12,550 nucleotides of DNA. Origin: Promethearchaeota archaeon (GTDB lineage: Archaea > Asgardarchaeota > Odinarchaeia > Odinarchaeales > JBHLKK01). The stretch spans positions 1 through 12,550 of the forward strand of contig JBHLPL010000055.1 of NCBI GenBank assembly GCA_048939465.1, read 5' to 3'. The translations under genes and the position numbers were made by a program. This document shows positions 1 through 12,550 of this stretch, one piece after another; the stretch's first letter is position 1; every line of letters starts with the position of its first letter. The notes below the pieces were generated by a model that was not told where the DNA came from, ran no database searches, and saw nothing but the letters and a program-made list of their open reading frames with translations.

Positions 1-1949
1 GTGATATCAAGACGTGCCTTTTCCGGAGTCTTCTCGGCTCCTGCTTGCCAGATGTGATTACCCAAAAGCTTTCTAGCCGCGCCATTTACTATGTGCGTGG
101 CTGTATGATGTCTCATCAAGGCGATCCTTCTTTCCCAATCAATTTTCCCGAGAACCTTTTGTCCTTCTCCAAATCTCGGTGTATCAACTTCATGAACCAC
201 AATCTCACCTATTTTTTCCACGTTAACAACTTTTGATCCATTCAACGTACCCATGTCGTGAGTCTGTCCTCCCCCTGTTGGATAAAACAAAGTTTGGTCT
301 AGCACAACGTATCTTCCGTCTATTATTCTCAATACTTTTGCCTTAAACTCCTTTTTGTATGTCTCTTCGTAGTATCGAAGACGTGTGGGATTTACGCCTT
401 CAAGCCCCTCCTTGAGCTGCTCCGACGGAGTAGTCTCTTCTCTCCTGACCTCCTCCTCGGTTTTTCTCTCGTTAATGCTTACGTAGAAATCTCCGGGGAT
501 GTCTACATGTTGCCCTCTTTTCTCTGCAATCTCCTTTATTACCTCAGGAGATATACCCCTTGATTCATATAGCTCTAGCAAAGTCTCTCGATTGATTCTT
601 TCTTTCTTTTTGAACAACCCCTCAACATATCTTCTTCCTTTTTCGAGGGTACTGTAATACCTTCTGGTTTCAATTTCCAAAATGTCACCGACTAGTTCTT
701 CTGAATTAAGTACTCGAGGATACGATCTCTTAAGGTAGTTGATGTGCCTATAACCGATCTCGGAAAGATCTAGTCCCAATCTGTAAACATCATTCAGACT
801 TATTGCTCTTCGAAGAATCGTTCTAAGGTTGTAGCCTCCTCCGACGTTCGAGGGTATGGCACCGTCGGCCAGTGCAAAAACAAACGTACGCATGTGATCG
901 GCTATCGCATAAATAGCCTCAAGAGGTCCTAATTTACTTTCAAGTTCGCGATGAGGTATCCCTAATCGTGAAGCTATTTCCCGTCTGACACTTTCAATAT
1001 TCCCGACTTCTTCAACATCGATAAGACCCGATAAGATTGTGTATCTGTGCAAAAGTTCTTTATCAACACTTATTCCTGACTCTTTAAACATATAATCGAA
1101 AACAGGTCCAAAAGTTGCCTCATAAATAGTTGGCGTTCCTTGTGTAAACCAGCAGGTCCTCTCAATACCCCAGCCAACATCAATTATCCTGAAATCCATT
1201 TTTTGATAGCTACCGTCTGGCAAGACCTCGTATTGCATAAAGACGTTATTGACAATCTCCAACCCTCTTCCGAATGCTTCGAGGCATGGTCCAAAATTAC
1301 CACCACCGACCCAGATGTCTTCCTTGTACACAACCTCTTCTGGTTTTAGTCTCAGATTCTTGGTTAGAAACTCAAAGTTCAGGTCGATACAGTGATCCAT
1401 CCAGTATCCTTTAAGACCCAACTTCTTAGAATTAAATGAATGTTGTCCCCCCATGACAAAAAGGCTTAAGTGTCTTCCGCTTTTTCCTACATTATCAACA
1501 TCGCTAAAACCTTTTCCGCCAAACCTAACACAAGGTTGCGGCACAACCAAAGGATTTGCAGGTGGTTTTGTTACACCACTCAAAACCCAAGGTTGAAAAT
1601 CAGCTATGGACGCGATTGTGAAGTGTATGTCGTCACGCCACCGCGCGACAACTGGATACTCCTTGATTCTGGTATGCCCATGTTGTTCAAAGAATCCGCA
1701 CCATTTCTCAATTGTTTTATGAAAATCCCAACCCCCGTTTATCCTCTGTTCAATGAACTTGTACCCTCCCACGCACGCTGTATCTCCGCACGATTTTTCA
1801 TCAGGATTCATTGTCCAGAAGTGACCACCACAACCCTCGCACTTTGCTCTGTCAAAACCTTCTCTCCTGAATAGTTCTACTTCGTACTCCTTTCGATTAA
1901 ATATCTTCCTCAGAATCTCTTTTGTAATCAACACGTTCACCCTCGACAT
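1..1949 (-). CDS. alaS: Alanyl-tRNA synthetase, archaeal type; 3'-truncated by the window edge
   Basis: Hand translation gives an uninterrupted minus-strand frame from ATG 1949 to base 1. Motifs: N-terminal Zn knuckle KCEGCGGHFWT..CGDTAC, YPVVARWRDD..FTIASIADFQPWV, IDVGWGIER, ADHMRT..DGAIPSNVGGGYNLRTILRR, DQTLFYPTGGGQ, editing-domain HHTATH. SD-like GAGGGTGA (1944-1937) suggests the true start is TTG 1931. Confidence 0.97.
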   Translation of the reverse strand, partial: MSRVNVLITKEILRKIFNRKEYEVELFRREGFDRAKCEGCGGHFWTMNPDEKSCGDTACVGGYKFIEQRINGGWDFHKTIEKWCGFFEQHGHTRIKEYPVVARWRDDIHFTIASIADFQPWVLSGVTKPPANPLVVPQPCVRFGGKGFSDVDNVGKSGRHLSLFVMGGQHSFNSKKLGLKGYWMDHCIDLNFEFLTKNLRLKPEEVVYKEDIWVGGGNFGPCLEAFGRGLEIVNNVFMQYEVLPDGSYQKMDFRIIDVGWGIERTCWFTQGTPTIYEATFGPVFDYMFKESGISVDKELLHRYTILSGLIDVEEVGNIESVRREIASRLGIPHRELESKLGPLEAIYAIADHMRTFVFALADGAIPSNVGGGYNLRTILRRAISLNDVYRLGLDLSEIGYRHINYLKRSYPRVLNSEELVGDILEIETRRYYSTLEKGRRYVEGLFKKKERINRETLLELYESRGISPEVIKEIAEKRGQHVDIPGDFYVSINERKTEEEVRREETTPSEQLKEGLEGVNPTRLRYYEETYKKEFKAKVLRIIDGRYVVLDQTLFYPTGGGQTHDMGTLNGSKVVNVEKIGEIVVHEVDTPRFGEGQKVLGKIDWERRIALMRHHTATHIVNGAARKLLGNHIWQAGAEKTPEKARLDI

Positions 1950-2023
1950 CGGAACGTGACCCGCAGATTTAGTGTAATCGTCACTTCTAATGGTAGTCTG
2001 TCTATTAATAAGAGTGGGGTTCT

Positions 2024-2072
2024 TCCTAATCCGGAATAATTAGGATAAATTTCAGAACCAAACAAAAAGGAA
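2024..2072 (-). terminator. Putative terminator region after rpl12: oligo-T tract followed by a 7-bp inverted repeat
   Basis: Minus strand TTCCTTTTTGTTTGGTT (2072-2056) lies 15 nt after the rpl12 stop. Inverted repeat TCCTAAT (2024-2030)/ATTAGGA (2039-2045) follows. Confidence 0.4.
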
Positions 2073-2087
2073 TGTGATTGGTTATCT

Positions 2088-2387
2088 TCACCCAAATAGA
2101 GCTCCCAAGCCTGCTGTAGCCTCTTCTTCCTCTTTTACTTCTTCCTTTTTCTTCTTCTCTTCAACAGGTGTCTCAGTCTTCGCTGCTGTTGTAGGCGCTG
2201 CTGCCGGAGCTATTGCAGCCATTTTAGTGGCTTCCTCAATGTTTACATCCTTGAGTGCAGCAACCAATGACTTCACTCGTGCTTCACTAGCTTTCGCTCC
2301 TGCCGCCTCCAAAACTTTACCAACGTTAGCCTCGGTGATTTTCTTTCCGGCCTTGTGGAGCAACATTGCAGCATAGATGTATTCCAT
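2088..2387 (-). CDS. rpl12: Ribosomal stalk protein aP1/L12
   Basis: [20 protein letters not shown]-terminus, Ala/Pro hinge, acidic tail ending GLGALFG. SD GGAGGTG (2400-2394) supports ATG 2387 rather than 2396. Confidence 0.97.
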
Positions 2388-2452
2388 ATCATACACCTCC
2401 GAACTATGAATTGCTTACATGCATCATTTCGATTCTTTCTATTTTCTCTTGA

Positions 2453-3328
2453 TTAAGTGGATTCTTTATACACTAATTTATATAGGGCGTTAGCCTCAGC
2501 TTCTGCTCTGGATAGCGGGGTCTCTATGAGTCCTGGTACGAATATTTGGGCATTTAACGAGAGATTGCTTATCTCCATAGATGCCTTTTGAAGTAAAATG
2601 TGCATATTATCACTTGTTGGATACGCCATATTTACTGATAGGTTAGTTGCTTCTGCATACGCCTTCCCTATTTGACCGAGTATTTTTTCGATATCCGTCT
2701 TTAGATCCTCGCTGGTGAAGATTACGCCGTTTTGATATGCTGCATGCAGAGTCAGCCCAACTTCCATCGGGGTGATACCCAGTTTAGATAGAATCATTGC
2801 TACTTTTCTAGGTACCTCTTCACCCTTTCTGACGATAACTTTGTCTTCTGCCATCCATATTGTCCCTGATCTGATTTTTGTCTTCAGACCCAAATCCCCA
2901 AATTCAGTTATCATAGGACCTGGTGGGAATCCAGTGTTCCCCTCAGGAATGATGATATCTTTTGATGGAATGCTTCCAGGTTTTGCAGGCGCCTTCATTC
3001 TATTACTGTTTAGGAATCTTGCCATCTCAAATGGATCCGTATTGACAAAAAGGAAGGCTATTGTGCCCTCTATCATGTCTATTAGTCCTTCAACATTCCT
3101 CTTCTTTCCCCTAGTCTTCTCTATGGCCCGTTTCATCAACCTATTCTTCGCCATTTTGATAATAGCTTCCCCTCTCAGCCTCTTTCTAATATCTTGAACC
3201 TGTTTTACACTCAGTTCTTCCATCTTTACCAAGCCAATCACATCAAATTCCTCGATATAGCTTGCTAGTTGCTCTACTTCCTTGATTTTCGCCTCAGGAA
3301 CTTCTCTTCTTTGAGCTGAAACACTCAT
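2453..3328 (-). CDS. rplP0: Ribosomal protein uL10/P0; lacks the C-terminal acidic tail
   Basis: RKRLRGEAIIKMAKNRLMKRA, NTGFPPGP, GITPMEVGL and YPT-type stalk helices; position in L1-L10-L12 order. Start is ATG 3328 or GTG 3337. Confidence 0.96.
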   Translation of the reverse strand: MSVSAQRREVPEAKIKEVEQLASYIEEFDVIGLVKMEELSVKQVQDIRKRLRGEAIIKMAKNRLMKRAIEKTRGKKRNVEGLIDMIEGTIAFLFVNTDPFEMARFLNSNRMKAPAKPGSIPSKDIIIPEGNTGFPPGPMITEFGDLGLKTKIRSGTIWMAEDKVIVRKGEEVPRKVAMILSKLGITPMEVGLTLHAAYQNGVIFTSEDLKTDIEKILGQIGKAYAEATNLSVNMAYPTSDNMHILLQKASMEISNLSLNAQIFVPGLIETPLSRAEAEANALYKLVYKEST

Positions 3329-3340
3329 AAAACCCACATC

Positions 3341-4000
3341 CTAGACCTCTAGTTTTGCTGAGGAACCCATGCTTGTCTTAACATAGATTGACTTGACATT
3401 TTGCATTCCTTTATCCAGATTTTCTTTGAGGAACGATAATATCTCCAGAATATTCTCTGCAGTACTTTTATTGTCCATATTCTTGTCTCCGACCTTAACA
3501 TGTATAACTAGGCTCTTCTTCATCGCTATTCGCACGGTTTTACGGTATTTTTCTAGGACAGGTTTAATATCTGATGTTGGCGGAATAATACCTCCTGGTT
3601 TGGGCATTTTTCCTCTGGGTCCGAGGATCGGTCCCAGAAATCTCCCGATCAGAGGCATCATGTCTGCACTCGCGATGAAGAAATCGTTTTCATCCACTAT
3701 TCTCTTGGCTGATTTCTTATCAGCGGCTAGTCTCTCCAAGTCCTCTCTTGATAAAACTAAATCTGCTCCCTCTTTCTTAGCTTGAATTGCCAAATCGCCC
3801 ATGGCTATGACACATATTCTTGGTTTCTTACTAGCGGTATTTGGCACAACTAATTCTGCTTCTATTCTGCTCTCTGGTCGTTTGAGATCTATCCCCCTCA
3901 GATTAACGGTTAGGTCGATCGACTCCACAAAGTTCCTTGTTTTTGCCTTGCTTTTTACTTCAGCAACAGTTTCTGCAATTCTATCAATGCTTACTGACAT
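3341..4000 (-). CDS. rpl1: Ribosomal protein uL1
   Basis: RNFVESIDLTVNLRGIDLK, LGPILGPRGKMPKP, VYVKTSMG-like terminal motif (IYVKTSMG). Confidence 0.97.
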   Translation of the reverse strand: MSVSIDRIAETVAEVKSKAKTRNFVESIDLTVNLRGIDLKRPESRIEAELVVPNTASKKPRICVIAMGDLAIQAKKEGADLVLSREDLERLAADKKSAKRIVDENDFFIASADMMPLIGRFLGPILGPRGKMPKPGGIIPPTSDIKPVLEKYRKTVRIAMKKSLVIHVKVGDKNMDNKSTAENILEILSFLKENLDKGMQNVKSIYVKTSMGSSAKLEV

Positions 4001-4152
4001 ATTCCTAAACCCCAGAATATACTAAAGGGAGATCATAATCCTTAAGATTGGAATTGGTCGAAGTTGTAGGAAAGGGATTTGCAAGCTTTCTATTTAACTT
4101 TATCTTTTTTCCCAAGACTCCGTCTGAAAGGGTGAAGATGAATTGCGTTGAA

Positions 4153-4189
4153 TTTAAATAAATTTTCTGGTAATTGAGTTTTGGGTAAG
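4153..4189 (-). promoter_or_regulatory. Putative BRE/TATA promoter for rpl1-rplP0-rpl12; possibly bidirectional
   Basis: Minus strand CTTACCCAAAA-CTCAA-TTACCAGAAAA-TTTATTTAAA: purine run followed by a TATA-like box. The plus strand reads TTTAAATA (4153-4160). Confidence 0.5.
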
Positions 4190-4478
4190 ACACTCGTAAG
4201 AGGAAGCTTGCCTAACGGCATGGTGTAGCATTCAGTCTGGGAGCACAGGCCTTGTGGGTGTATCCCGCTTGGCGGGGCAGCTGAGTGCCTGTGGCACAGT
4301 ATGGAGCGAACCAGCCTGAAGTTTGAAAGCTTTCCTGTGCAGCCCTGAATTCGGAGCACAGAAGCCCCCCTCTGCGAAGCCAAAGTGTCCTTAGGTGCGT
4401 AAATCAGGGAGAAGGAGGAAACTCTTTACGAAGGCCGGGAGCAGTTCGCCTGGAGAAATCTATATCTCTCTTTCCTGA
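4183..4478 (+). ncRNA. Candidate structured ncRNA of unknown family between rpl11 and rpl1
   Basis: About 56% GC over 4201-4440 (hand count), with G exceeding C on the plus strand and no credible ORF. Helices: AAGGAG-GAAA-CUCUUU (4412-4427), CUC-GUAA-GAG (4193-4202), UCCCGC/GCGGGG (4263-4277), CUGUGC/GCACAG (4335-4361), UCAGGGAG/UUUCCUGA (4404-4411/4471-4478), UAAG-ACACU/AGUGU-C-CUUA (4186-4194/4384-4393). Some helices are slightly better on the minus strand, so strand is not certain. Confidence 0.5.
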
Positions 4479-4494
4479 AATATATTACTGAAAT

Positions 4495-4989
4495 CTAGGT
4501 TCCTTCAGCTTTTGAGATTAGCTCGTCGAATTCTCCTTGATCTATTTTCCTTTGAATGTCCCTCGGGTCTTCTCCGTCTATAGTTATACCCATGCTAACG
4601 CATGTGCCAAGTACGGTTTTGACAGCTCTTTTTAGACCTCTGTCAAACATTAGGTCTTTTTTCGCGTTTGCGATTTTGACTACCTGTTCTAACTTAATGC
4701 TGCTAACCTTTTCTTCGCTAGGGTTCTGACTTCCCTTACTAACACCGGCCTCTTTAAGAATAAGTGCTGATGTAGGAGGAACCCCTATCTCAACCTCGAA
4801 TTCCTTAGTTTCTTCGTCAACTATTATCTTAACTGGCACTTTAAGACCGGTCAAATCCTTGGTCAGTTCGTTTATTTTTGTAACTACCGCATAAAGGTTC
4901 ACGCCCGTGGGTCCAAGCATCGGTCCAACTGGAGGACCAGCACTGGCTTTTCCTCCCTCAACCATTGTTTCAACGCTTAGCTTACCCAT
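4495..4989 (-). CDS. rpl11: Ribosomal protein uL11
   Basis: VEGGKASAGPPVGPMLGPTG, VPPTSALI, VKTVLGTCVSMG; SD GAGGGTGA (5003-4996). Confidence 0.97.
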   Translation of the reverse strand: MGKLSVETMVEGGKASAGPPVGPMLGPTGVNLYAVVTKINELTKDLTGLKVPVKIIVDEETKEFEVEIGVPPTSALILKEAGVSKGSQNPSEEKVSSIKLEQVVKIANAKKDLMFDRGLKRAVKTVLGTCVSMGITIDGEDPRDIQRKIDQGEFDELISKAEGT

Positions 4990-5065
4990 TTTGAATCACC
5001 CTCAAATAACCATGGAGAAAACGTTCAAACCAATTATAAAATTTTCGCATATCAAAGGCGGACCG

Positions 5066-5581
5066 CTAGAGGTGAAATTCCTCCTCTTCCTCCTCTTCCT
5101 CCTCAAACTTGCTCGTCTTTTCGACTAGCTTAATATAATCTGCATGCACCTTTATGGGAATTGGATATGCAGATTCAAGGAGTTCAAGGACAACTTCGCT
5201 TTTTGAAGCATCTATCCTCGAAACCTTGGCCCTCTCTCCCTTGAATGGACCACCGATGATCTCGACAGTATCGCCAACGTCTAGTCCCTCTGTGGCCGGT
5301 CTAGGCACAAGTGCATGTTCTATCTCTGATATGTCCACTTTTCCTACGACTTTGCCCCTCACGTGAGGTATTCCCGATATAACTTTATCTACTTCCTGTT
5401 GGCTTCCCGCCTCTACAAAAACATAGCCTCTCAAAAGCCAGGAAACTAGTACGGCTTTTAGGTTTGCTTTTAATGTTTTTGCTCTTGCCTTGATCATCTC
5501 TGCTACGCCTTTTTCCTGACCTATAATCGTTCTAATGGCATAAATGCTGGTCTTAGCTCTCGAAATTGCCATAATACGCAT
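5066..5581 (-). CDS. spt5: Transcription elongation factor Spt5/NusG (NGN + KOW)
   Basis: RTIIGQEK, LRGYVFVEA, KOW GDTVEIIGGPFKGERAKV. Alternative ATG at 5572. Confidence 0.96.
   Translation of the reverse strand: MRIMAISRAKTSIYAIRTIIGQEKGVAEMIKARAKTLKANLKAVLVSWLLRGYVFVEAGSQQEVDKVISGIPHVRGKVVGKVDISEIEHALVPRPATEGLDVGDTVEIIGGPFKGERAKVSRIDASKSEVVLELLESAYPIPIKVHADYIKLVEKTSKFEEEEEEEEEFHL
5078..5104. repeat. Perfect 9-nt tandem repeat (TTCCTCCTC)x3 encoding nine Glu at the Spt5 C-terminus
   Basis: Units at 5078-5086, 5087-5095 and 5096-5104; the minus strand reads (GAG GAG GAA)x3. Confidence 0.9.
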
Positions 5582-5591
5582 CTCCGCTCTC

Positions 5592-5762
5592 CTAAAAACC
5601 CGTGAATGCCCAGAATAATATTCTAATTATGAATGCTAATACTCCCAAAACCAATATGGCAAGTAGACTCATTCTGACTCCGTAATTGACTTCTTTTAGG
5701 GTAGGCTTCCTGGAAAGCCTAATGACTCTCTTAGCTTTTTCTATGAAATCCCTCAATCCCAT
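5592..5762 (-). CDS. secE: Preprotein translocase subunit SecE/Sec61-gamma (56 aa)
   Basis: RVIRLSRKPT followed by one hydrophobic TM segment; ftsZ-secE-spt5 order. ATG 5762 is preferred over the ORF-track start, which overlaps ftsZ. Confidence 0.93.
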   Translation of the reverse strand: MGLRDFIEKAKRVIRLSRKPTLKEVNYGVRMSLLAILVLGVLAFIIRILFWAFTGF

Positions 5763-5787
5763 TCTCAGAACCCCAAAGGAAGCTGCT

Positions 5788-6864
5788 TCAAAGTTCTTCA
5801 AGCCCTAAGTCTTTCCCTAGGTTATTAACCTTTTCCCCGTTTGCGCCAAAAATGTACGGAGATCTAACGCCTGAGACTATGATTATTACTTGGACTTTAT
5901 CTTTTAGCGAATCGTCTATTATTGCGCCCCAAATTATCTCGGCGTCGGGTTGGAGCTTATCTGAAACAACTTTGACTGCGGTTTGCGCTTCTTTTAGTGT
6001 CATATCTGAACTTCCATTTACGTTTATCAGCGCGGCGTTGGCCCCTTCTATGTCCACATCCAAAAGTGGATTATTCAATGCGTTTTCTACTGCATCTATG
6101 GCTCTGTCATTGTTATCCGATTCTCCCATCGCAATAATTGCCACTCCACGATTCTTCATGATAGTCCTGACATCAGCAAAGTCTAAGTTTACTAGTCCTG
6201 GCCTGGTTACCAGCTCAGCTATGCCTTTGACCCCTCGTATAAGCACTTCATCTGCCACCTTAAACGCCTCAGAGATGCTCAAATCAGGTGCAAACTCCAG
6301 AAGCCTATCATTTGGAATCACGATAACGGTATCTGAAGCTTTCAGAAGCTTTTTTAGGCCCTTTGCTGCGTTTTCCTGTCTTTTTTTGCCCTCAACTTTG
6401 AATGGCAAGGTCACTATTGAGACCGTCAACGCATTCTGTTTTTTTGCAGCTTCGGCAAAAATCGGTGCTGCCCCTGTGCCGGTTCCGCCACCGAGTCCAC
6501 ATGTAATAAACACCATGTCGGCCTTTACCGAGTTTCTGATATCGTCAATGTTCTCCCTTGCAGCCGCTTCTCCGACGTCTGGATTATTACCTGCCCCAAG
6601 TCCACCTGTTAATTCTTTTCCAATAAGGAGCTTGTAATGAGATTTGGTATGAAGTAAGTCCTGAGCATCCGTGTTCACGGCAAGCGTTTCAGCTCCATCT
6701 ATGCCTGCTTCCATTAAGCGGGTTGTTGTATTGCCTCCCGCTCCGCCGATACCTATGGATAGAATCTTGGCTTTTACGTTTCTCAAGACTTCCTCCAGAT
6801 GAGTGTCTGTTATGTGATCTTCTGTACGGGCTTTCTTTAGGGCTGTTTCTATGAGCGAACGCAT
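5788..6864 (-). CDS. ftsZ: Cell division protein FtsZ (FtsZ1-like), 358 aa
   Basis: GIGGAGGN, GGGTGTG tubulin signature, NLDFADV T7 loop, IIWGA. SD GAGGGTG (6877-6871) precedes ATG 6864 (MRSLIETAL). Confidence 0.97.
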   Translation of the reverse strand: MRSLIETALKKARTEDHITDTHLEEVLRNVKAKILSIGIGGAGGNTTTRLMEAGIDGAETLAVNTDAQDLLHTKSHYKLLIGKELTGGLGAGNNPDVGEAAARENIDDIRNSVKADMVFITCGLGGGTGTGAAPIFAEAAKKQNALTVSIVTLPFKVEGKKRQENAAKGLKKLLKASDTVIVIPNDRLLEFAPDLSISEAFKVADEVLIRGVKGIAELVTRPGLVNLDFADVRTIMKNRGVAIIAMGESDNNDRAIDAVENALNNPLLDVDIEGANAALINVNGSSDMTLKEAQTAVKVVSDKLQPDAEIIWGAIIDDSLKDKVQVIIIVSGVRSPYIFGANGEKVNNLGKDLGLEEL

Positions 6865-6930
6865 TATGAGCACCCTCAATCGAAAAACGAGATTAAGTCG
6901 GGATAATCTAAGCTTAACTTCTTTTTTTTC

Positions 6931-6953
6931 CAATAAATTCTTTTCTTTGGTAG
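6931..6953 (-). promoter_or_regulatory. Possible ftsZ promoter (BRE + TATA-like)
   Basis: Minus strand CTACCAAAGAAAAGAATTTATTG about 70 nt upstream of the ftsZ ATG; resembles the two r-protein promoter-like sites. Confidence 0.3.
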
Positions 6954-7061
6954 TCTTCAAGAATCAGATCTTATTACCCCAGTAATACGCTAGTATATAT
7001 GATGCAATTATAGAGTCGTCAGCTTCTAAGTGACCAAAGGCGCCATTCAGCATGGATTTGG

Positions 7062-7910
7062 CTATGACGAAGGATACTTCGAAGCAAAATCGCTGGCTTT
7101 TCCAACGTCAACTTGCATATTTCCGGCCATTTCTGTTATCCTAATCCTCTCCTTTCCTTTAACACCCTTCCAATCAAAAATTAGCATTTCGGCTCCATCG
7201 GCAGTCTTCTCTATAGCTTGCTTCAACATTTCTTCATTGATGTAGATAGTAGCGTGCTTTGGAATTATATGACCAACAGCGACTTCCGTATTCAATCCAA
7301 GCTTAGTGAATTTTGGGGCATAGTGCCCCCCTCCTACTCCTATTGCTCTCAACCCTTTTCTCGGAGGGTTAATCGAAGATATAATTGCCTTAGCTGCTGC
7401 CAATCCTGCTTTTTTGTTCTGCCATCTTTCAGCTGTACTCCCGATTTCTACATACATGACTGGGATATCAAGAGAGGGGCCATGATGTGTTGCTTCATAG
7501 CTGACTCTGTACTCCTTCAGACCAAGCTCGATCTTTGCTGCTAATAGCCTTTTTAGAGCAGATTTCATCTCGTATGCTGGGGCGATAGAGACTCTCCTAT
7601 CTTTGCCCCCAAATTCCGCCTTGTTCAAATTACCCGGAACGTGAACAGTCAAGACCGGTAGTTTACTTTCACTTGAATGTCTGGAGGCACATATCACGAG
7701 TTCTGGCGAAAAGGACTCTGTAATATGGGACGCATAAATAGTATCTCTTGTAGTAAGCGCCAACTCAACTTTTTTTCCACTGATGACCGTATGACGGACA
7801 ATACTCTCGTCAAATGTTTTGTTGGTCTCCTCAAAACTGCAAATTGAACGTAATTGTTCAATAATATTCATGCCAGCAACATCCATTGTAGAAGCCAGAA
7901 CCAGTATCAA
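7062..7910 (-). CDS. dtdA: D-aminoacyl-tRNA deacylase, archaeal/plant DTD2 type
   Basis: SRHSSES, LTVHVPGN, EATHHGPS, YVEIGS, GVGGGHYAPKF. TTG start with an in-frame stop just upstream; adjacency to ftsZ is typical of archaea. Confidence 0.93.
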   Translation of the reverse strand: MILVLASTMDVAGMNIIEQLRSICSFEETNKTFDESIVRHTVISGKKVELALTTRDTIYASHITESFSPELVICASRHSSESKLPVLTVHVPGNLNKAEFGGKDRRVSIAPAYEMKSALKRLLAAKIELGLKEYRVSYEATHHGPSLDIPVMYVEIGSTAERWQNKKAGLAAAKAIISSINPPRKGLRAIGVGGGHYAPKFTKLGLNTEVAVGHIIPKHATIYINEEMLKQAIEKTADGAEMLIFDWKGVKGKERIRITEMAGNMQVDVGKASDFASKYPSS

Positions 7911-7922
7911 ACTACTATCCCC

Positions 7923-8849
7923 TCATAATAGGAGCGATAGTATCGCCTTTTGAGCGTGAAGTCGATTTTCAGCTTGATCCCAAACAATTGAATTTGGGCC
8001 ATAAAAAACCTCATCTGTAACTTCATTCTTCTCACGAGGAAGACAGTGCATAAACAAGTAACTTCCATGGGCAGAAGAACATAGTTCCTCGGTTACTTGA
8101 AACGAACTAAAATCCTTTTTGCGTTTTTCAGCTTCTTTTTCTTGTCCCATGCTGACCCAAACATCAGTATAAACTATGTCTGCGTCTTTAACAGCAGCCT
8201 CAGATGAATTAACAATCTCTATCTTAGAGCCGGAAATTGCTGCATTTTTCTTGGCAAGCCCTAGGACTCCTTGCGCCGGTTCATACCCTTTCGCAGTTCC
8301 AACACTTATATCCATTCCTACTTTGCTGCATCCGATTAATAAGGAATTACAAACATTGTTCCCATCTCCCAGGAATGCCAATTTCAGATCTTTCAGTTTT
8401 GTTCTTCTCTCTTTTATTGTTAGAAGATCTCCCAATATTTGACAGGGATGAAATAGGTCTGATAAGCCGTTGATAACAGGAATCTCTGCATTCTCGGCGA
8501 ACTCCTCAAGACCATCGTGAGAGAAGACTCTCGCCATTATGCCGTCTACGTATCTGTCTAAGACACGAGCAGTATCTGATATTGGTTCCCCGCGCCCGAG
8601 TTGGATATCGTTCCATCCTAGATAGATACTACGTCCTCCTAACTGATACATTGCCACCTCAAATGAGACTCTGGTTCTGGTAGATGGTTTCTGGAAAATC
8701 ATTGCTAACGTCTTCTCCTGAAGAAGTCTGTGCCCTGACTCTCCAGTAGTCTTCCTCTTTAAGCTACTCGCAGTGTCCAGCATCAAGTTGATATCTTCTT
8801 GCGTAAAATCCTGTAGTGTCAAAAAATCTCTCCCTCTAATGCTTTGCAT
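7923..8849 (-). CDS. argF: Ornithine carbamoyltransferase
   Basis: FQKPSTRTR, HPCQ, GDGNNV, DVWVSMGQE, HCLP, QAENRLHAQKA. Confidence 0.96.
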   Translation of the reverse strand: MQSIRGRDFLTLQDFTQEDINLMLDTASSLKRKTTGESGHRLLQEKTLAMIFQKPSTRTRVSFEVAMYQLGGRSIYLGWNDIQLGRGEPISDTARVLDRYVDGIMARVFSHDGLEEFAENAEIPVINGLSDLFHPCQILGDLLTIKERRTKLKDLKLAFLGDGNNVCNSLLIGCSKVGMDISVGTAKGYEPAQGVLGLAKKNAAISGSKIEIVNSSEAAVKDADIVYTDVWVSMGQEKEAEKRKKDFSSFQVTEELCSSAHGSYLFMHCLPREKNEVTDEVFYGPNSIVWDQAENRLHAQKAILSLLL

Positions 8850-8899
8850 GCTTCTTTCCCCTCATCATATCTCTCATAATTAGCATTCTAGTATCCCCT

Positions 8900-9802
8900 T
8901 CATGACAAAATAAGGTTTACAAACTCCTCCGGCTCGAATTTTCTTAAATCTTCATATCTTAGACCGGTTCCCACATAAATTATTGGCTTCTTTGTTATGT
9001 AAGCTATAGAAAGGGCAGCTCCACCTTTTACATCTGCATCTATTTTGGTGAGAACTGAAGCGTCAATTTTCACTGCCTCGCTGAACTCCTTAGCTTGTGA
9101 TACTGCGTCATTGCCAGCTAGAGCATCACCTACAAAGATAACAAGATCGGCGTCGGAAACTCTCACGATCTTTCTCATTTCATCCATTAGGTTTTTGTTG
9201 GTCTGAACGCGTCCTGCCGTGTCAACTAAGACTGTTTTTATATTCCTAGCTCTCGCGTAATTTGCAGCATCATAAGCGACAGCTGCCGCGTCTGCGCCAT
9301 AATCATGCTTTATTATGCGAACTCCAAGTTTCTCCGCGTGCTTCTCTAATTGCTCAATACTTCCCGCACGGAATGTGTCACTGGCTGCCATGACTACTGA
9401 ACAGTTCTTTTTCTGAAGTAATCTGGCGAATTTGGCTATGGTGTGGGTCTTTCCAACACCGTTAAATCCCACAAAAACGATCACAAATGGATCTTTCTTT
9501 TTCTTTACGAGCTCAACCAGGTCTATCCTATTGTTGTCTTTTATTCTCAATGCCTCGTGAATGACCTCTCTAAGCGCTTCTTCCACGTAGTTCTTCGTAT
9601 CCTCCAGGCGCCCTATCCTAGTACCAACGAGTTTGCTTTTGAGATCTTCTGCAATCATATCTGCGACAGTCACAGCCACATCATTACCAATAAGTTCCAT
9701 TTTCAACTCGTAAAGAGCCTTCTCTAATCTCTTTTCATTGAGTTCTTTTGTGGCGATTTTTCCCTTGAAACTTCTTAAGCTTTGCTTAAGTTTCTCGAAC
9801 AT
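8900..9802 (-). CDS. ftsY: SRP receptor FtsY (NG domain only, 300 aa)
   Basis: GFNGVGKT P-loop, DTFRAGSIEQL, DTAGR, TKID, GGAALS. Confidence 0.97.
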   Translation of the reverse strand: MFEKLKQSLRSFKGKIATKELNEKRLEKALYELKMELIGNDVAVTVADMIAEDLKSKLVGTRIGRLEDTKNYVEEALREVIHEALRIKDNNRIDLVELVKKKKDPFVIVFVGFNGVGKTHTIAKFARLLQKKNCSVVMAASDTFRAGSIEQLEKHAEKLGVRIIKHDYGADAAAVAYDAANYARARNIKTVLVDTAGRVQTNKNLMDEMRKIVRVSDADLVIFVGDALAGNDAVSQAKEFSEAVKIDASVLTKIDADVKGGAALSIAYITKKPIIYVGTGLRYEDLRKFEPEEFVNLILS

Positions 9803-9848
9803 TTGCTCTCCCCCGCTATGCTACGGCAAAAACACGATTACGTCAGAA

Positions 9849-10262
9849 TCATTTGGGCTTACGCAACAGCTCCTCTACTTGTGGTCTAATCTCGTAGATT
9901 TTATTTTGAATCTGCCTAAGCTGTATTTTTAGAGAAGCTGATGCCTTAACTAGTTCTTCCTGTCTCTCCTCTAATCTTTTGATAGCCTTTTCTACCTCGG
10001 TTTCGATGACAACACCTGCTCCTATCCCCAAGGTGACTTTGTCTGTATCCTCAAATCGAGCTTTGATATAAGAATTGGAACCAATTGGGGCAAGGAATTC
10101 TTGGTCTGCTTTTTTACTCTTGAATTCCTCGAGGGTGAACTTTGTAATATTGAGTTCAGCAATTACGGAAGATACTAGCTCAATCCGTTTTTGAAGGGAA
10201 GTGGCTTGAACCTCGTATGCGTTAAGTTCTGCAACTGCTTTTCTAATCTTGTCTTCGGACAT
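9849..10262 (-). CDS. pfdA: Prefoldin alpha subunit
   Basis: Coiled coils flanking the beta-hairpin FLAPIGSNSYIKA..KVTLGIGAGVVIE; canonical LX-pfdA-ftsY order. Confidence 0.93.
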   Translation of the reverse strand: MSEDKIRKAVAELNAYEVQATSLQKRIELVSSVIAELNITKFTLEEFKSKKADQEFLAPIGSNSYIKARFEDTDKVTLGIGAGVVIETEVEKAIKRLEERQEELVKASASLKIQLRQIQNKIYEIRPQVEELLRKPK

Positions 10263-10282
10263 TCTCTACACATCCCCGCAGA

Positions 10283-10480
10283 TTAACTTGATGCCTCTTC
10301 TATCTCTTCGATTGCTTTTATTCTTACGTTTCTTCTTCTTACACGATGGTTGCTGCCTAGATCCATGTAGATCTTCTCTATAGCATCCTCTTTTTTCAGG
10401 GCTCTTATTACTTTGGAAAAATCGTAGATACGATCTTTCTTCTTGAATACTCCCTTGATTATGAAGTCTTTGACGCTCAT
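10283..10480 (-). CDS. rplX: Ribosomal protein LX/eL20 (L18a)
   Basis: FSKVIRALKKEDAIEKIYMDLGSNHRVRRRNVRIKAIEEI; conserved gene position. Confidence 0.92.
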   Translation of the reverse strand: MSVKDFIIKGVFKKKDRIYDFSKVIRALKKEDAIEKIYMDLGSNHRVRRRNVRIKAIEEIEEASS

Positions 10481-10556
10481 GCTTATCTACACCATACAGG
10501 TAGACCTCATCCAAAAGGATTGAGACAAATTGCACTGAGTCTAAATGCGCTCTCTG

Positions 10557-10575
10557 ATATTAAATTTTGGGTAAG
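10557..10575 (-). promoter_or_regulatory. Putative BRE/TATA promoter for rplX-pfdA-ftsY; possibly bidirectional
   Basis: Minus strand CTTACCCAAAA-TTTAATAT about 80 nt upstream of the rplX ATG; the same 11-mer occurs upstream of rpl1. Confidence 0.5.
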
Positions 10576-10938
10576 GTACTTTCAAAATGCTAAAAGGGAG
10601 GGAGAAGCTACTTGCAGAACCTGAGAATAATCCACTATTATCTAAACCACCTCAAGGAGACCTCGTTCGAAAGGGCGTAGACGAATTGAGCAGTCTTTGG
10701 ATGCTTTTATACTAAACATGTTAATAGGTCTGAAGACACCTCTCTCTGATGCGGAAACGGTTAATGACCTATGAAGAAAGGCGAGGTAAACCCGATAGCC
10801 AGAAGCTATATGCAGATTAGCAGGCCAGGGCGCTGCAAACTGCCCTCTGAATTGACTTGCGGTGAAATCAAAGTCAGGAAGGGAATTGCGGTCAAGCACA
10901 GCCGTAAGCTCTTCGTGTAAGGGACGAGTAGCTTACTC
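10569..10938 (+). ncRNA. Candidate structured ncRNA of unknown family between eIF6 and rplX
   Basis: Ends pair: GGGUAAG-G-UACUU (10569-10581) with GAGUA-G-CUUACUC (10926-10938), 12 bp with 2 G-U pairs valid only on the plus strand. Internal helices: CGUUC-GAAA-GGGCG (10664-10677) inside CUCAA/UUGAG (10651-10690), AUAGGUC/GACCUAU (10724-10772), AGGGCG/UGCCCU (10827-10846), UUGACUU/AAGUCAG (10852-10877). About 46% GC (hand count). Confidence 0.45.
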
Positions 10939-11606
10939 TATTCTATGTCCAGTGCTTCTCCTATTCTGACAAGTTCTGGTCCGGTTGTTTCAAATCCCGC
11001 AATTGCTCCATGGGAGTTTGCCAGAAGTCCTGCTCTTACGTAAAATACACCACGATTTGTGGTTCCAATATTTACCGGAACTTTCAGAATCTCTCTTATT
11101 TGCTGTAGTTCTTCTTCGGATGCATGGGGGGCGGCAAGAACTCCTCTATTTGTAGCAACTGCCAATGAGCCCACTAACGGCGAAAGACCTATTCTGCCTT
11201 TCTGACCTTCTACATCAAGCGTCTCTTCAATAGACTTTACTGCCTGTGGTTCAAGTTTGGGATGAAGAATTGCACCGTAATCATTACAGAGGACAATATT
11301 ACCAAAGCAAGTTAATTTGCTTGGGATTATTCCAATATTTAGATCTGTATTCTTCTTGATATGTAGCATTTCACTTTCCATCGCATAATAGGGCAAGATT
11401 ATCCCGTTGGAATTCCCTGCTGAAAGTACCCCGATCAGAGAGCTTTGACCAATATTCGCTTCTATGAGGGAAACTTTGAGAGTCTCTTCCACTACTTTGG
11501 GGATTCTTTTTGGAAGGCCACGCCGCACAAGTACGAAATTATCGTTGGCAAACGAAAAAACTCCCAAATTTGGCGTTCCTAGGAAGTCCAGACGCTGAAT
11601 AGCCAA
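10938..11606 (-). CDS. eif6: Translation initiation factor 6 (aIF6)
   Basis: FLGTPNLGVF, GNIVLCNDYGAILHP, VGSLAVATNRGVL, GTTNRG..VRAGLLANSHG..TTGPEL; TTG start. Confidence 0.97.
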   Translation of the reverse strand: MAIQRLDFLGTPNLGVFSFANDNFVLVRRGLPKRIPKVVEETLKVSLIEANIGQSSLIGVLSAGNSNGIILPYYAMESEMLHIKKNTDLNIGIIPSKLTCFGNIVLCNDYGAILHPKLEPQAVKSIEETLDVEGQKGRIGLSPLVGSLAVATNRGVLAAPHASEEELQQIREILKVPVNIGTTNRGVFYVRAGLLANSHGAIAGFETTGPELVRIGEALDIE

Positions 11607-11610
11607 AGAA

Positions 11611-11892
11611 TCACACCTCGGCTAATAAGACCTCGACAACACCATCAATATCTTTGGTTGCTCTGACCTTGATTTTATGAGGAGGTTTTTCTATTCCCCT
11701 TTCCCATATTTTTTCATTGACGTCTGGATTTATGAGAACTGTATCGGCTTTCATGTGGCGAGAAATATACTCTTTCAGTATCTTAACAGCTTTCTTAGCT
11801 CTGCTCTTGGGTTTGATATATTTGATGACTTTGTGTATTGGTACTGTGTAAATTCGCTCCTCAACAATTTCTTTGCCTGGTTTCTCAGACAA
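11611..11892 (-). CDS. rpl31e: Ribosomal protein eL31
   Basis: ERIYTVP, RAKKAVKILKEYISRHMK, NEKIWERGIEKPPHKIKVR; SD GAGGTGA (11905-11899) and TTG start. Confidence 0.96.
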   Translation of the reverse strand: MSEKPGKEIVEERIYTVPIHKVIKYIKPKSRAKKAVKILKEYISRHMKADTVLINPDVNEKIWERGIEKPPHKIKVRATKDIDGVVEVLLAEV

Positions 11893-11905
11893 CTTCTGTC
11901 ACCTC

Positions 11906-12061
11906 TTAAGGCTTTATCCTTGTCCTCCTCCAAAGTCTTCTTTTTGGATGCATTCTGACCCTTCCCCTGGTCTTCACAATAACCCAAGTTGGGACGCTTT
12001 TGTTTTCGGTAAGAGCATGTCCAAGTCTGAGCTTCTTCCCCAAAGGCTTGTTTCTTGCCAT
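11906..12061 (-). CDS. rpl39e: Ribosomal protein eL39 (51 aa; absent from the ORF track)
   Basis: Hand translation [51 protein letters not shown]; ATG 12061, TAA 11908-11906. Confidence 0.96.
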
Positions 12062-12077
12062 GGCAATCGTCTACCCT

Positions 12078-12422
12078 TTATCTGAATTTAATGCGTATAT
12101 CCCTCTTTTTGCTCTGCAATCTAGCTAGCAGAGTTTTGAACTCTTCATCTGACATCGGAAGCGAATAGCCTGATCGAACTAGTTGCCCATTTTGAGCCAG
12201 TCTTATTAGCTGAATCTCAACTTGCTCAGCAAATTCAGGCTTAACCATCTTGATATTTGTTAGTCTGCTTCTGGCCTCCGGTGATAGAATTGAGCGCAGA
12301 AGCTTCTCTTTTTGTGTTTCCATCTCTTTTCGGAGTTGTTCTTTACCTTGTGCCTCTTCTATCTGTTGCCGGAGTTGCATTAATTTCCTTTGTCGGATCA
12401 TCTCCAACTCTTCGTCCGACAA
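12078..12422 (-). CDS. pdcd5: PDCD5/TFAR19-family DNA-binding protein
   Basis: DEELEMIRQRKL, LRSILSPEARSRLTNIKMVKPEFAEQVE, DEEFKTLL; SD GGAGG (12435-12431), TTG start; canonical position after rps19e. Confidence 0.93.
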   Translation of the reverse strand: MSDEELEMIRQRKLMQLRQQIEEAQGKEQLRKEMETQKEKLLRSILSPEARSRLTNIKMVKPEFAEQVEIQLIRLAQNGQLVRSGYSLPMSDEEFKTLLARLQSKKRDIRIKFR

Positions 12423-12434
12423 TATATTCTCCTC

Positions 12435-12550
12435 CTAATCCTTACTCCTCTTCTGGAGCGTTTGGTAAATTCTGTGCGCAGTCATGTCTAGAAGGGAACG
12501 TCCTTTAGGCGTAAGCAGCCTTCCTTTCTTCTCCTCTGCTTGTACGAGCC
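12435..12550 (-). CDS. rps19e: Ribosomal protein eS19, C-terminal fragment (5'-truncated by the window edge)
   Basis: Hand translation LVQAEEKKGRLLTPKGRSLLDMTAHRIYQTLQKRSKD*, matching the eS19 GRxLTPKGRSLLD motif; TAG 12437-12435. Confidence 0.9.
   Translation of the reverse strand, partial: LVQAEEKKGRLLTPKGRSLLDMTAHRIYQTLQKRSKD

Follow-up and report, generated by a model that had tools for sequence, protein, structure and literature searches.

The two long intergenic gaps in a ribosomal-protein gene cluster of a Promethearchaeota archaeon (Asgardarchaeota, Odinarchaeia) were very probably opened by short, gene-less transposable elements of the IS200/IS605 type. The stretch analysed, called the window below, is a 12.5-kb piece of the genome (contig JBHLPL010000055.1 of assembly GCA_048939465.1, positions 1 to 12,550) in which every gene is on the minus strand. 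Gap 1 lies between the genes of ribosomal proteins L11 and L1, gap 2 between those of eIF6 and ribosomal protein LX. The elements in these gaps are interpreted as non-autonomous and of PATE (palindrome-associated transposable element) type, lying on the plus strand, antisense to the ribosomal-protein genes, and derived from tnpB-bearing elements by deletion of the core. The retained parts, as shown by sequence comparison, are the left end (LE) with its subterminal hairpin, a predicted TATA-type promoter that would drive tnpB in the full element, the last ~215-265 nt of the parent, made up of the tnpB 3' end and the right end (RE), and the RE hairpin with the terminal ..GAGTAGTTYAC. Ends are named on the plus strand, LE first; coordinates are collected in Table 1.

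The organism's own assembly (G000; 1.96 Mb, 91% complete), whose contigs carry C-numbers unless another genome is named, was compared with two genomes of the same genus (G001 and G002), with a genome from another family of the same phylum (G024) and with contigs of this or related strains from public metagenome runs (X3, X5 and X9). The first-pass annotation, made from the letters of the window alone, had put the gaps at ~495 and ~455 nt. Gap 1 extends over 4001-4494 (494 nt). As LX is the intact 65-aa ORF (open reading frame) at 10283-10480 (Pfam Ribosomal_L18A, E 1.9e-16), gap 2 extends over 10481-10937 (457 nt). The plus strand of both gaps is also purine-richer, as had been noted, with a purine fraction of 0.53-0.56 compared with 0.42 for the whole window.

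Two repeat families with IS200/IS605 ends

By BLAST, the cores of both gaps matched 11-14 other places in G000 over their whole length at 68-83% identity, and more diverged or partial members were present as well. The matches form two families. Family 1, to which the gap-1 element belongs, has 12 full copies in G000 at 69-83% identity (BLAST and a family hidden Markov model, HMM). Family 2, present in gap 2, has 15 full copies in G000 at 68-77% identity and further copies in G001 and G002. The bodies of the two families are dissimilar (gap 1 compared with gap 2), and the families have in common only the 3' end and, in the LE, a hairpin/promoter module of ~50 nt. The layout is the same in both: a TTYAT flank, the ~50-nt LE module with the hairpin TCCGTCC-GARA-GGGYGGA, a TATA-like box, a GC-richer conserved body starting ~22-25 nt past this box, a hairpin and the terminal GAGTAGTTYAC. 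Conservation along both families is block-wise and not uniform, which suggests constraint on the body. Of the 27 copies, 18 are oriented mostly antisense to long ORFs in their vicinity; the bias is not strong, and docking at start codons, described below, accounts for part of it.

The same ends were found on elements that do carry transposon genes. Searching with an HMM of the LE module (nhmmer) gave 80 sites genome-wide, including a tnpB element at C2:25980 and a tnpA+tnpB element at C105:1002. The single Y1 transposase gene (tnpA) of G000 is located at C105:1180-1545 (PF01797, E 7.5e-37), and TnpB-type genes are present as intact ORFs on C2 and C105 and as pieces at contig ends of C55 and C70. 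Directly after TTTAT, the C2 element starts with CTCTTTCTCCGCAAAAAGAC-TCCATCC-GAGA-GG...TTTAAAT, followed by an intact tnpB ORF of 384 aa, and it ends in ...CTCCATCCGAAAGGGCGGGGCAGTTCAC; in the comparison with the families, its left end reads TTTAT, then ..CCGCAAAAAGAC-TCCATCC-GAGA-GG..TTTAAAT. The TATA-like box of this element (26029-26035) lies upstream of the tnpB ATG at 26094. TCCATCC-loop-GGGTGGA-GTAGTTYAC is found at both ends of the C105 element, and an RE hairpin followed by GTAGTTYAC is common to the gap families and to the C2 and C105 ends. At both ends of the gap elements, then, the subterminal hairpins correspond to those found in this genome on IS200/IS605 elements that carry tnpA or tnpB. 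From the anatomy of the C2 and C105 ends it follows that the module shared by the families is an IS left end with a putative promoter, and their shared 3' end an IS right end.

A third family, of ~214-nt LE-RE elements, was also observed in at least 11 copies (examples in G000: C39:12680, C141:1435, C137:2639/8605/23311, C68:13257, C71:13535, C133:1631, C130:5165 and C2:18494), and other size classes run from 132 to 396 nt. Some 80 LE modules stand beside a single detectable tnpA in this 2-Mb genome.

With a length of 155-346 nt, the elements of the window are too short for a transposase. Their internal ORFs gave no Pfam match, and in other copies the frames are broken by indels of a length not divisible by three; the elements are therefore considered non-coding. 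Open frames for small minus-strand proteins are present in both gaps (97 aa at 4090-4383 and 85 aa at 10642-10899). These frames have TTG/GTG starts inside repeat DNA, no Pfam match and no persistence among the copies, so the probability that the gaps encode such proteins is negligible.

Empty sites in relatives and related strains

In G001 and G002 the L11-L1 spacer measures 147 nt, compared with 494 nt in the window, and the eIF6-LX spacer 14 nt, compared with 457 nt. At the first junction, both relatives read from ..ctatttaacTTTAT directly into CGGGAGAAAGTC.., straight across TTTAT and CGGGAGAAA. The window reads ..ctatttaacTTTAT, then positions 4104-4449, then CTGGAGAAATC.., with the element between TTTAT and CTGGAGAAA. 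Gap 1 is a precise insertion of 346 nt 3' of TTTAT, without duplication (494-346=148). The left flanks of the 27 family copies are TTYAT-like; the elements lie 3' of this short target, without target-site duplication and without terminal inverted repeats.

The insertions also differ between strains. Both gaps were filled in a 19-kb contig of an independent study (run X3). In related-strain contigs of runs X5 and X9, position 4104 is joined to 4500 and the family-1 insertion is absent. A ~90%-identical X5 contig keeps the mini-element of gap 2 (described below), and 10613 is joined to 10937 via ...GAGAAGAGCTCAC TATCGT; the contig reads ..GCTCAC TATCGT and continues from 10937, without the 295-nt element. 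The family-2 insertion is polymorphic between related strains and therefore fairly recent.

The 147-nt L11-L1 spacer itself is well conserved across the genus (window 4001-4103 plus 4450-4494; L094 in G001, L099 in G002) and probably holds the promoter and leader of the L1 operon. Read on the minus strand, the gap-1 element is followed after a few bases by the box TTAAATAG (4090-4097), which is AT-rich.

These comparisons bear on the idea, put forward in the first-pass annotation, that the gaps hold two related host-encoded structured non-coding RNAs (ncRNAs) of the ribosomal-protein superoperon, divergently transcribed from internal promoters. TATA-like boxes and GC-richer foldable plus-strand segments are indeed found in both gaps. 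The same sequences, however, occur as dispersed families at at least 25 unrelated loci, the junctions are without them in the same-genus genomes and in related strains, and there is no homology between the two long bodies. There was no Rfam match either, and the RNAs of the signal recognition particle (SRP) and of RNase P, considered as gap content, were both found elsewhere (C86 and C76, respectively). Host ncRNAs of this kind are very improbable. Comparison of the orthologous gaps favours insertion, the junctions of the relatives being without elements. The annotation had also offered two decayed insertions of one non-autonomous element. Insertions they are, but three in number, from two sub-families that share only the ends and the promoter module.

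Composition of gap 2 and the shared 11-mer

Gap 2 consists of two elements in tandem: a 155-nt mini-element, then TATTAT, then a family-2 element of 295 nt. The mini-element is a core-deleted relative of family 1. Family-1 HMM positions 7-94, with the LE hairpin, TCTAAAT and an 11-mer, match 10497-10584 (33.9 bits). At 10598-10635 there is a weak match to positions 308-346 that stops precisely where the model does, and the intervening positions 95-307, which make up the scaffold core, are deleted. A single base separates the family-2 element from the eIF6 stop codon (10938-10940).

The 11-mer, TTTTGGGTAAG, is present in both gaps at 4179-4189 and 10565-10575, and TATA-like boxes are found ~20-25 nt upstream of each copy (TTTAAAT at 4153-4159, TCTAAAT at 10540-10546), both as first reported. 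A genome search for more copies gave five occurrences, compared with three for the reversed control, and four of the five are in family-1-type elements. The family-2 consensus is without it. The impression that both gaps have the same layout was not upheld, since the gap-2 11-mer belongs to the separate mini-element and the ~300-nt stretch beyond it is another element. The recurrence of the 11-mer is due to the common family-1 ancestry of the gap-1 element and the mini-element of gap 2. In gap 1, the region of the 11-mer is a probable transcript start region, and the plus-strand transcription predicted from the TATA box of the LE is consistent with the family anatomy.

A long-range helix had likewise been proposed for each gap. 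The gap-1 helix (4186-4194 with 4384-4393) was retained, with eight of its nine positions kept across the 12 copies; the pair 4192:4386 is A-U, G-U or G-C in different family-1 copies. In gap 2, the helix (10569-10575 with 10926-10938) joins two independent elements and is therefore a coincidence.

Origin of the element bodies

Family-2 HMM positions 153-300 were aligned to C55:5875-5721 (E 4e-19), which comprises the last ~52 codons of a tnpB (..ARNIAQRYTRITGLG.. and ..DLNGARNIAQRYTRITGLG.., up to the stop) and the RE. The stop codon of this tnpB lies inside the RE hairpin loop. The 5' half of the family-2 body resembles the preceding CGHTLNSDLNGARN codons of tnpB, and the family-2 body is homologous to the last ~215 nt of tnpB plus the RE. 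Complete forms occur in the genus: four elements of G001/G002 (L069, L070, L074 and L077) contain, in order, the family-2 LE, a tnpB with an open frame of up to 384-406 aa and the family-2 3' end. An intermediate deletion form with a remnant of the TnpB zinc-ribbon domain was located at C5:940-1316. For family 1, HMM positions 142-346 align to a tnpB 3' end plus RE in G002 (C94; L085:1691-1865).

The omega (guide) RNA of TnpB is encoded by the tnpB 3' end and the RE (PMC10055086, PMC4615843). The family-2 body is placed as an omega RNA would be expected to be: its strand is that of tnpB, it overlaps the 3' end of the gene and it extends through the RE. For family 1 the match is weak.

The pieces at the two contig ends of G000 are a 3' piece of family-2-type tnpB (C55:5721-6043) and a 5' piece with LE (C70:1-999), and are probably one multi-copy element that broke the assembly. 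Family-2-like cassettes were also observed in G024 (L055:1206-1520 on the minus strand, L059 and L063), with a TATA box, GGTCTAAAGGCACACC..GTGGAAACGGTTAATGACC and ..GAGGTAGTTTAC. They adjoin ABC-transporter, flavodoxin-like and carbamoyltransferase genes, and their 5' half is like the gene-less form, their 3' half like the tnpB-linked form.

Following the mechanism described for IS200/IS605 elements (PMC10055086), the elements would move as single-stranded DNA, with the TnpA of C105 acting in trans. The LE promoter would transcribe the omega-RNA-like scaffold, and the flank adjoining the RE would serve as the 3' guide. A TnpB supplied from elsewhere (C2, C105 or C55/C70) could use this RNA to cut the TTYAT-flanked empty donor site again, and such re-cutting would favour retention of the element.

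Predicted RNA structure and evidence against the interpretation

An HMM-anchored alignment of 31 family-2 3' bodies, including the tnpB-linked parents and the G024 copies, was folded with RNAalifold. The consensus reached -68.6 kcal/mol, compared with -34.6 +/- 3.7 for column shuffles and -58.5 for the reverse complement. One example of compensatory change in this alignment is GGGGCG/CGCCCC compared with GGGCTT/AAGCCC. In the consensus folds of the full copies, double changes were seen in 14 of 78 pairs for family 1 and in 8 of 62 pairs for family 2.

A number of results weigh against the proposed origin or against a structured RNA. In the alignment of the 31 family-2 bodies, 24 of 40 pairs were compensatory, with a shuffle maximum of 22, and the copies are related, which inflates the count. 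Since this count is only slightly above the best shuffle, the covariation is supportive but not decisive. As single sequences, the gaps folded no better than dinucleotide shuffles on either strand (plus-strand z -0.39 and -0.64), so that the folding control of the first-pass annotation turned out negative. Its check against Rfam also ended without a known family: no useful match was obtained at gathering score for the whole window or at E<=10 for both gaps. The sub-threshold hits, all far below the cut-offs, were CRISPR-DR8 (E 0.15), RAGATH-26 on the LE hairpin (E 0.42), an L31 leader (E 2) and sR33 (E 7.7); HgcC, HEARO and the ribosomal-protein leaders gave no match in the gaps at or near gathering score, and no tRNA or tmRNA genes were found. 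Concerning the parents, the family-1 match is weak (33.8 bits, found only with --max), no family-1-type tnpB is present in the 91%-complete G000 assembly, and the family-2-type tnpB of G000 occurs only in pieces at two contig ends. When the family copies were compared with the two complete tnpB elements C2 and C105 (blastn, blastx), only the element ends matched and not the bodies. Finally, the family-2 copy of the window is without the consensus TATA, and its RE hairpin is altered.

State of the copies in the window

The copies in the window may have the same IS200/IS605 identity and yet be inert, decaying relics, no longer mobile and giving no functional RNA, spacer DNA that is read through by the operon transcripts. 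We regard this as possible but less likely than not for the window as a whole, and the three copies differ in this respect. In the family-2 copy, CCTTAAATAC is replaced by TCTTTGGATG, two nucleotides are deleted at the conserved AAGGCACACC, and the RE hairpin is shifted; with 273 bits this copy scores second-lowest of the 15 full copies (best 329). The mini-element lacks HMM positions 95-307 and its RE is degenerate. With the consensus TATA lost in the one and the scaffold lost in the other, both are probably decaying relics.

The family-1 copy of gap 1 also shows some wear, namely a C.A mismatch within its LE hairpin and, at the RE, TTCGC where TTCAC is expected (terminal motif GCAGTTCGC, family consensus GTAGTTCAC). 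Against inertness, this copy has retained TATA box and start region along with a complete scaffold, is the third best of the 12 copies (332 bits) and, judged by its sequence, looks intact. The block-wise conservation of both families, with the constraint on the body that it suggests, and the recent, strain-polymorphic insertion of family 2 argue in the same direction.

One further family-1 copy, at C48:18818-19214 in G000, is broken at HMM position ~245, where an insert of ~40 nt (18923-18961, plus strand) consists of a hairpin only. The same arrangement of an element inside an element has been described for haloarchaeal PATEs.

Docking at start codons

The target TTCAT reads ATGAA on the opposite strand, so elements can land exactly on start codons. 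In gap 2, the LE of the mini-element abuts the LX start codon exactly (CAT at 10478-10480, LE from 10481), in place of the 14-nt spacer of the relatives, and puts GGTG 9 nt upstream of the LX ATG. The LX gene is intact. Seven of the 15 family-2 copies adjoin, with no base between, the ATG of an ORF of at least 150 aa; on the strand of that gene, the LE reads GGAGGTGGTTTAG directly before the ATG. The docked copies in G000 are C66:3252-3549, C23:2084-2383, C61:18115-18414, C59:1616-1911, C139:3766-4065, C27:3872-4168 and C116:22377-22671; their ORFs, of 150-500 aa, are on the opposite strand, and GGAGGTGGTTTAG before the ATG represents a Shine-Dalgarno sequence at 6 nt.

A different role for the elements could be read from this, in which the LEs have been co-opted on the minus strand as portable expression signals, placing a Shine-Dalgarno sequence and perhaps a TATA box before the landing gene. 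Translation of LX would in that case depend on sequence derived from the element, and plus-strand read-out across the RE could give antisense RNA to L11 and eIF6. We hold this to be rather doubtful. Docking can be passive, given the ATGAA on the other strand of the target and the survival of only harmless insertions, and neither the gap-1 element nor the family-2 element of the window is docked at a start codon. That LEs of mini-transposons work as portable translation signals, possibly also as transcription signals, with a ribosome-binding site of the GGAGGTG type taking the place of the native upstream region, is an equally tentative generalisation. If true, essential genes, including ribosomal-protein genes of an Asgard archaeon, would be expressed from signals supplied by transposons, and antisense transcription into L11 and eIF6 would come in addition from the guide-RNA promoter, which reads outward. 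Of all aspects of these elements, only start-codon docking might go beyond published knowledge.

Features and gene order of the window

The features of both gaps and the gene order of the window are given in Table 1. An 89-aa GTG frame on the minus strand (10266-10535) was rejected as LX, having no Pfam match and lying in another frame than the true gene. It extends into the left end of the mini-element, and a simple ORF call would name it LX.

Table 1. Positions of the gap elements, their parts and the surrounding genes in the window.
Feature	Position	Strand	Remarks
TTTAT target pentanucleotide	4099-4103	+	directly 5' of the gap-1 element; presumed target-adjacent motif (TAM)
Family-1 PATE-like element, 346 nt	4104-4449	+	LE, putative promoter, omega-RNA-like body, RE
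LE subterminal hairpin TCCGTCT-GAAA-GGGTGAA	4119-4136	+	module common to both families and to tnpB/tnpA elements
TATA-like box TTTAAAT of the LE	4153-4159	+	kept in 10 of 12 family-1 copies; putative promoter
11-mer TTTTGGGTAAG	4179-4189	+	family-1 consensus ~20-25 nt after the TATA box (alignment, 12 copies)
Omega-RNA-like body and RE, family 1	4183-4449	+	RE hairpin ~4422-4443
Flank adjoining family-1 RE	4450-4467 (~4467)	+	putative guide segment, from the IS200/IS605 TnpB mechanism (PMC10055086)
Spurious 97-aa ORF inside family-1 element	4090-4383	-	no Pfam match; indels not multiples of three among copies
CTCAT target of mini-element	10476-10480	+	CAT at 10478-10480 is the LX start codon on the minus strand; LE starts at 10481
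Core-deleted family-1-type mini-element, 155 nt	10481-10635	+	degenerate RE ending ..GAGAATAATCCAC
LE hairpin of mini-element	10506-10524	+	
TCTAAAT of mini-element	10540-10546	+	
11-mer of mini-element	10565-10575	+	
TATTAT	10636-10641	+	target for family-2 insertion; 6-nt spacer between the two elements
Family-2 PATE-like element, 295 nt	10642-10936	+	terminal motif GTAGCTTAC
LE hairpin, family 2	~10661-10680		
Mutated TATA region, family 2	10694-10703		TCTTTGGATG; family consensus CCTTAAATAC
Omega-RNA-like body, family 2	~10727-10936		
RE hairpin, family 2	~10911-10929		
Flank adjoining family-2 RE	10937-10954	+	putative guide segment; overlaps the eIF6 stop and last codons on the opposite strand
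Spurious 85-aa ORF inside family-2 element	10642-10899	-	no Pfam match; 6-10-nt indels among copies
Gene order, first part		-	alaS, P1/L12, L10, L1 (3341-4000), L11 (4495-4989), Spt5/NusG
Gene order, middle part		-	SecE, FtsZ, D-Tyr-tRNA deacylase, carbamoyltransferase, FtsY, prefoldin alpha
Gene order, last part		-	LX, eIF6 (10938-11606), L31e, L39e, dsDNA-binding protein

Relation to known elements and significance

The kind of element is already known; the host lineage is new. PATEs were defined in Haloquadratum by the same features, including terminal-only forms and one with C-terminal tnpB sequence (PMC3119063). As in the PATEs of Haloquadratum walsbyi and other haloarchaea (Dyall-Smith et al. 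2011, PMC3119063), a transposase gene, terminal inverted repeats and target duplication are lacking, the near-terminal palindromes are like those of IS605-type transposons of the same genome, and a 4-6-nt target lies alongside the insertion. An origin by core deletion, tiny terminal-only forms comparable to the 155-nt mini-element and strain-specific insertions are shared as well, and the published PATE HqIRS71 (PMC3119063) keeps part of the C-terminal tnpB region, as the bodies described here do. In contrast to the haloarchaeal PATEs, the present host is an Asgard archaeon, the copies are old and divergent (68-83% identity), and a promoter-plus-scaffold layout is uniform across two families.

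Similarity was also found with the PATE-like elements of Geobacillus stearothermophilus (Meers et al. 2023, PMC10055086). These share LE and RE with tnpB elements, have a single candidate tnpA, and are bordered by a conserved TAM and transposon-encoded motif, here TTYAT and TTYAC. The omega RNA is kept in them without the nuclease gene, and TnpB is hence needed in trans; PATEs are said to 'often encode omega RNAs', on which TnpB acts in trans (PMC10055086). The elements described here differ by their archaeal host and the TATA-type promoter in the LE, and they are known from sequence alone.

In Halobacterium, PATE-derived RNA is expressed (PMC4615843). The sotRNAs of Halobacterium salinarum, with VNG_R0052 among the RNAs reported (Gomes-Filho et al. 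2015, PMC4615843), resemble the present case in having the ncRNA region at the 3' end of an IS1341-type tnpB, and VNG_R0052 is an intergenic RNA of fused LE and RE. Unlike the elements of the window, the H. salinarum RNAs (PMC4615843) have been seen by RNA-seq and affect growth on overexpression. They have no sequence similarity to the elements found here, which also gave no match to HgcC of Rfam.

The identification of the gap contents removes a false lead, since the long ribosomal-protein junctions are explained by transposon insertions and not by new operon-linked RNAs. Gene-less IS200/IS605 elements bearing predicted guide RNAs are abundant in this Asgard genome, with clean empty sites and strain polymorphism, and such elements can sit within highly expressed, conserved gene clusters while leaving the genes unbroken. 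For the annotation of Asgard metagenome-assembled genomes this is of practical use, as cassettes of this kind would otherwise be entered as ncRNAs or as small ORFs. The elements also provide natural material on stand-alone omega RNAs and on the TAMs of archaeal TnpB.

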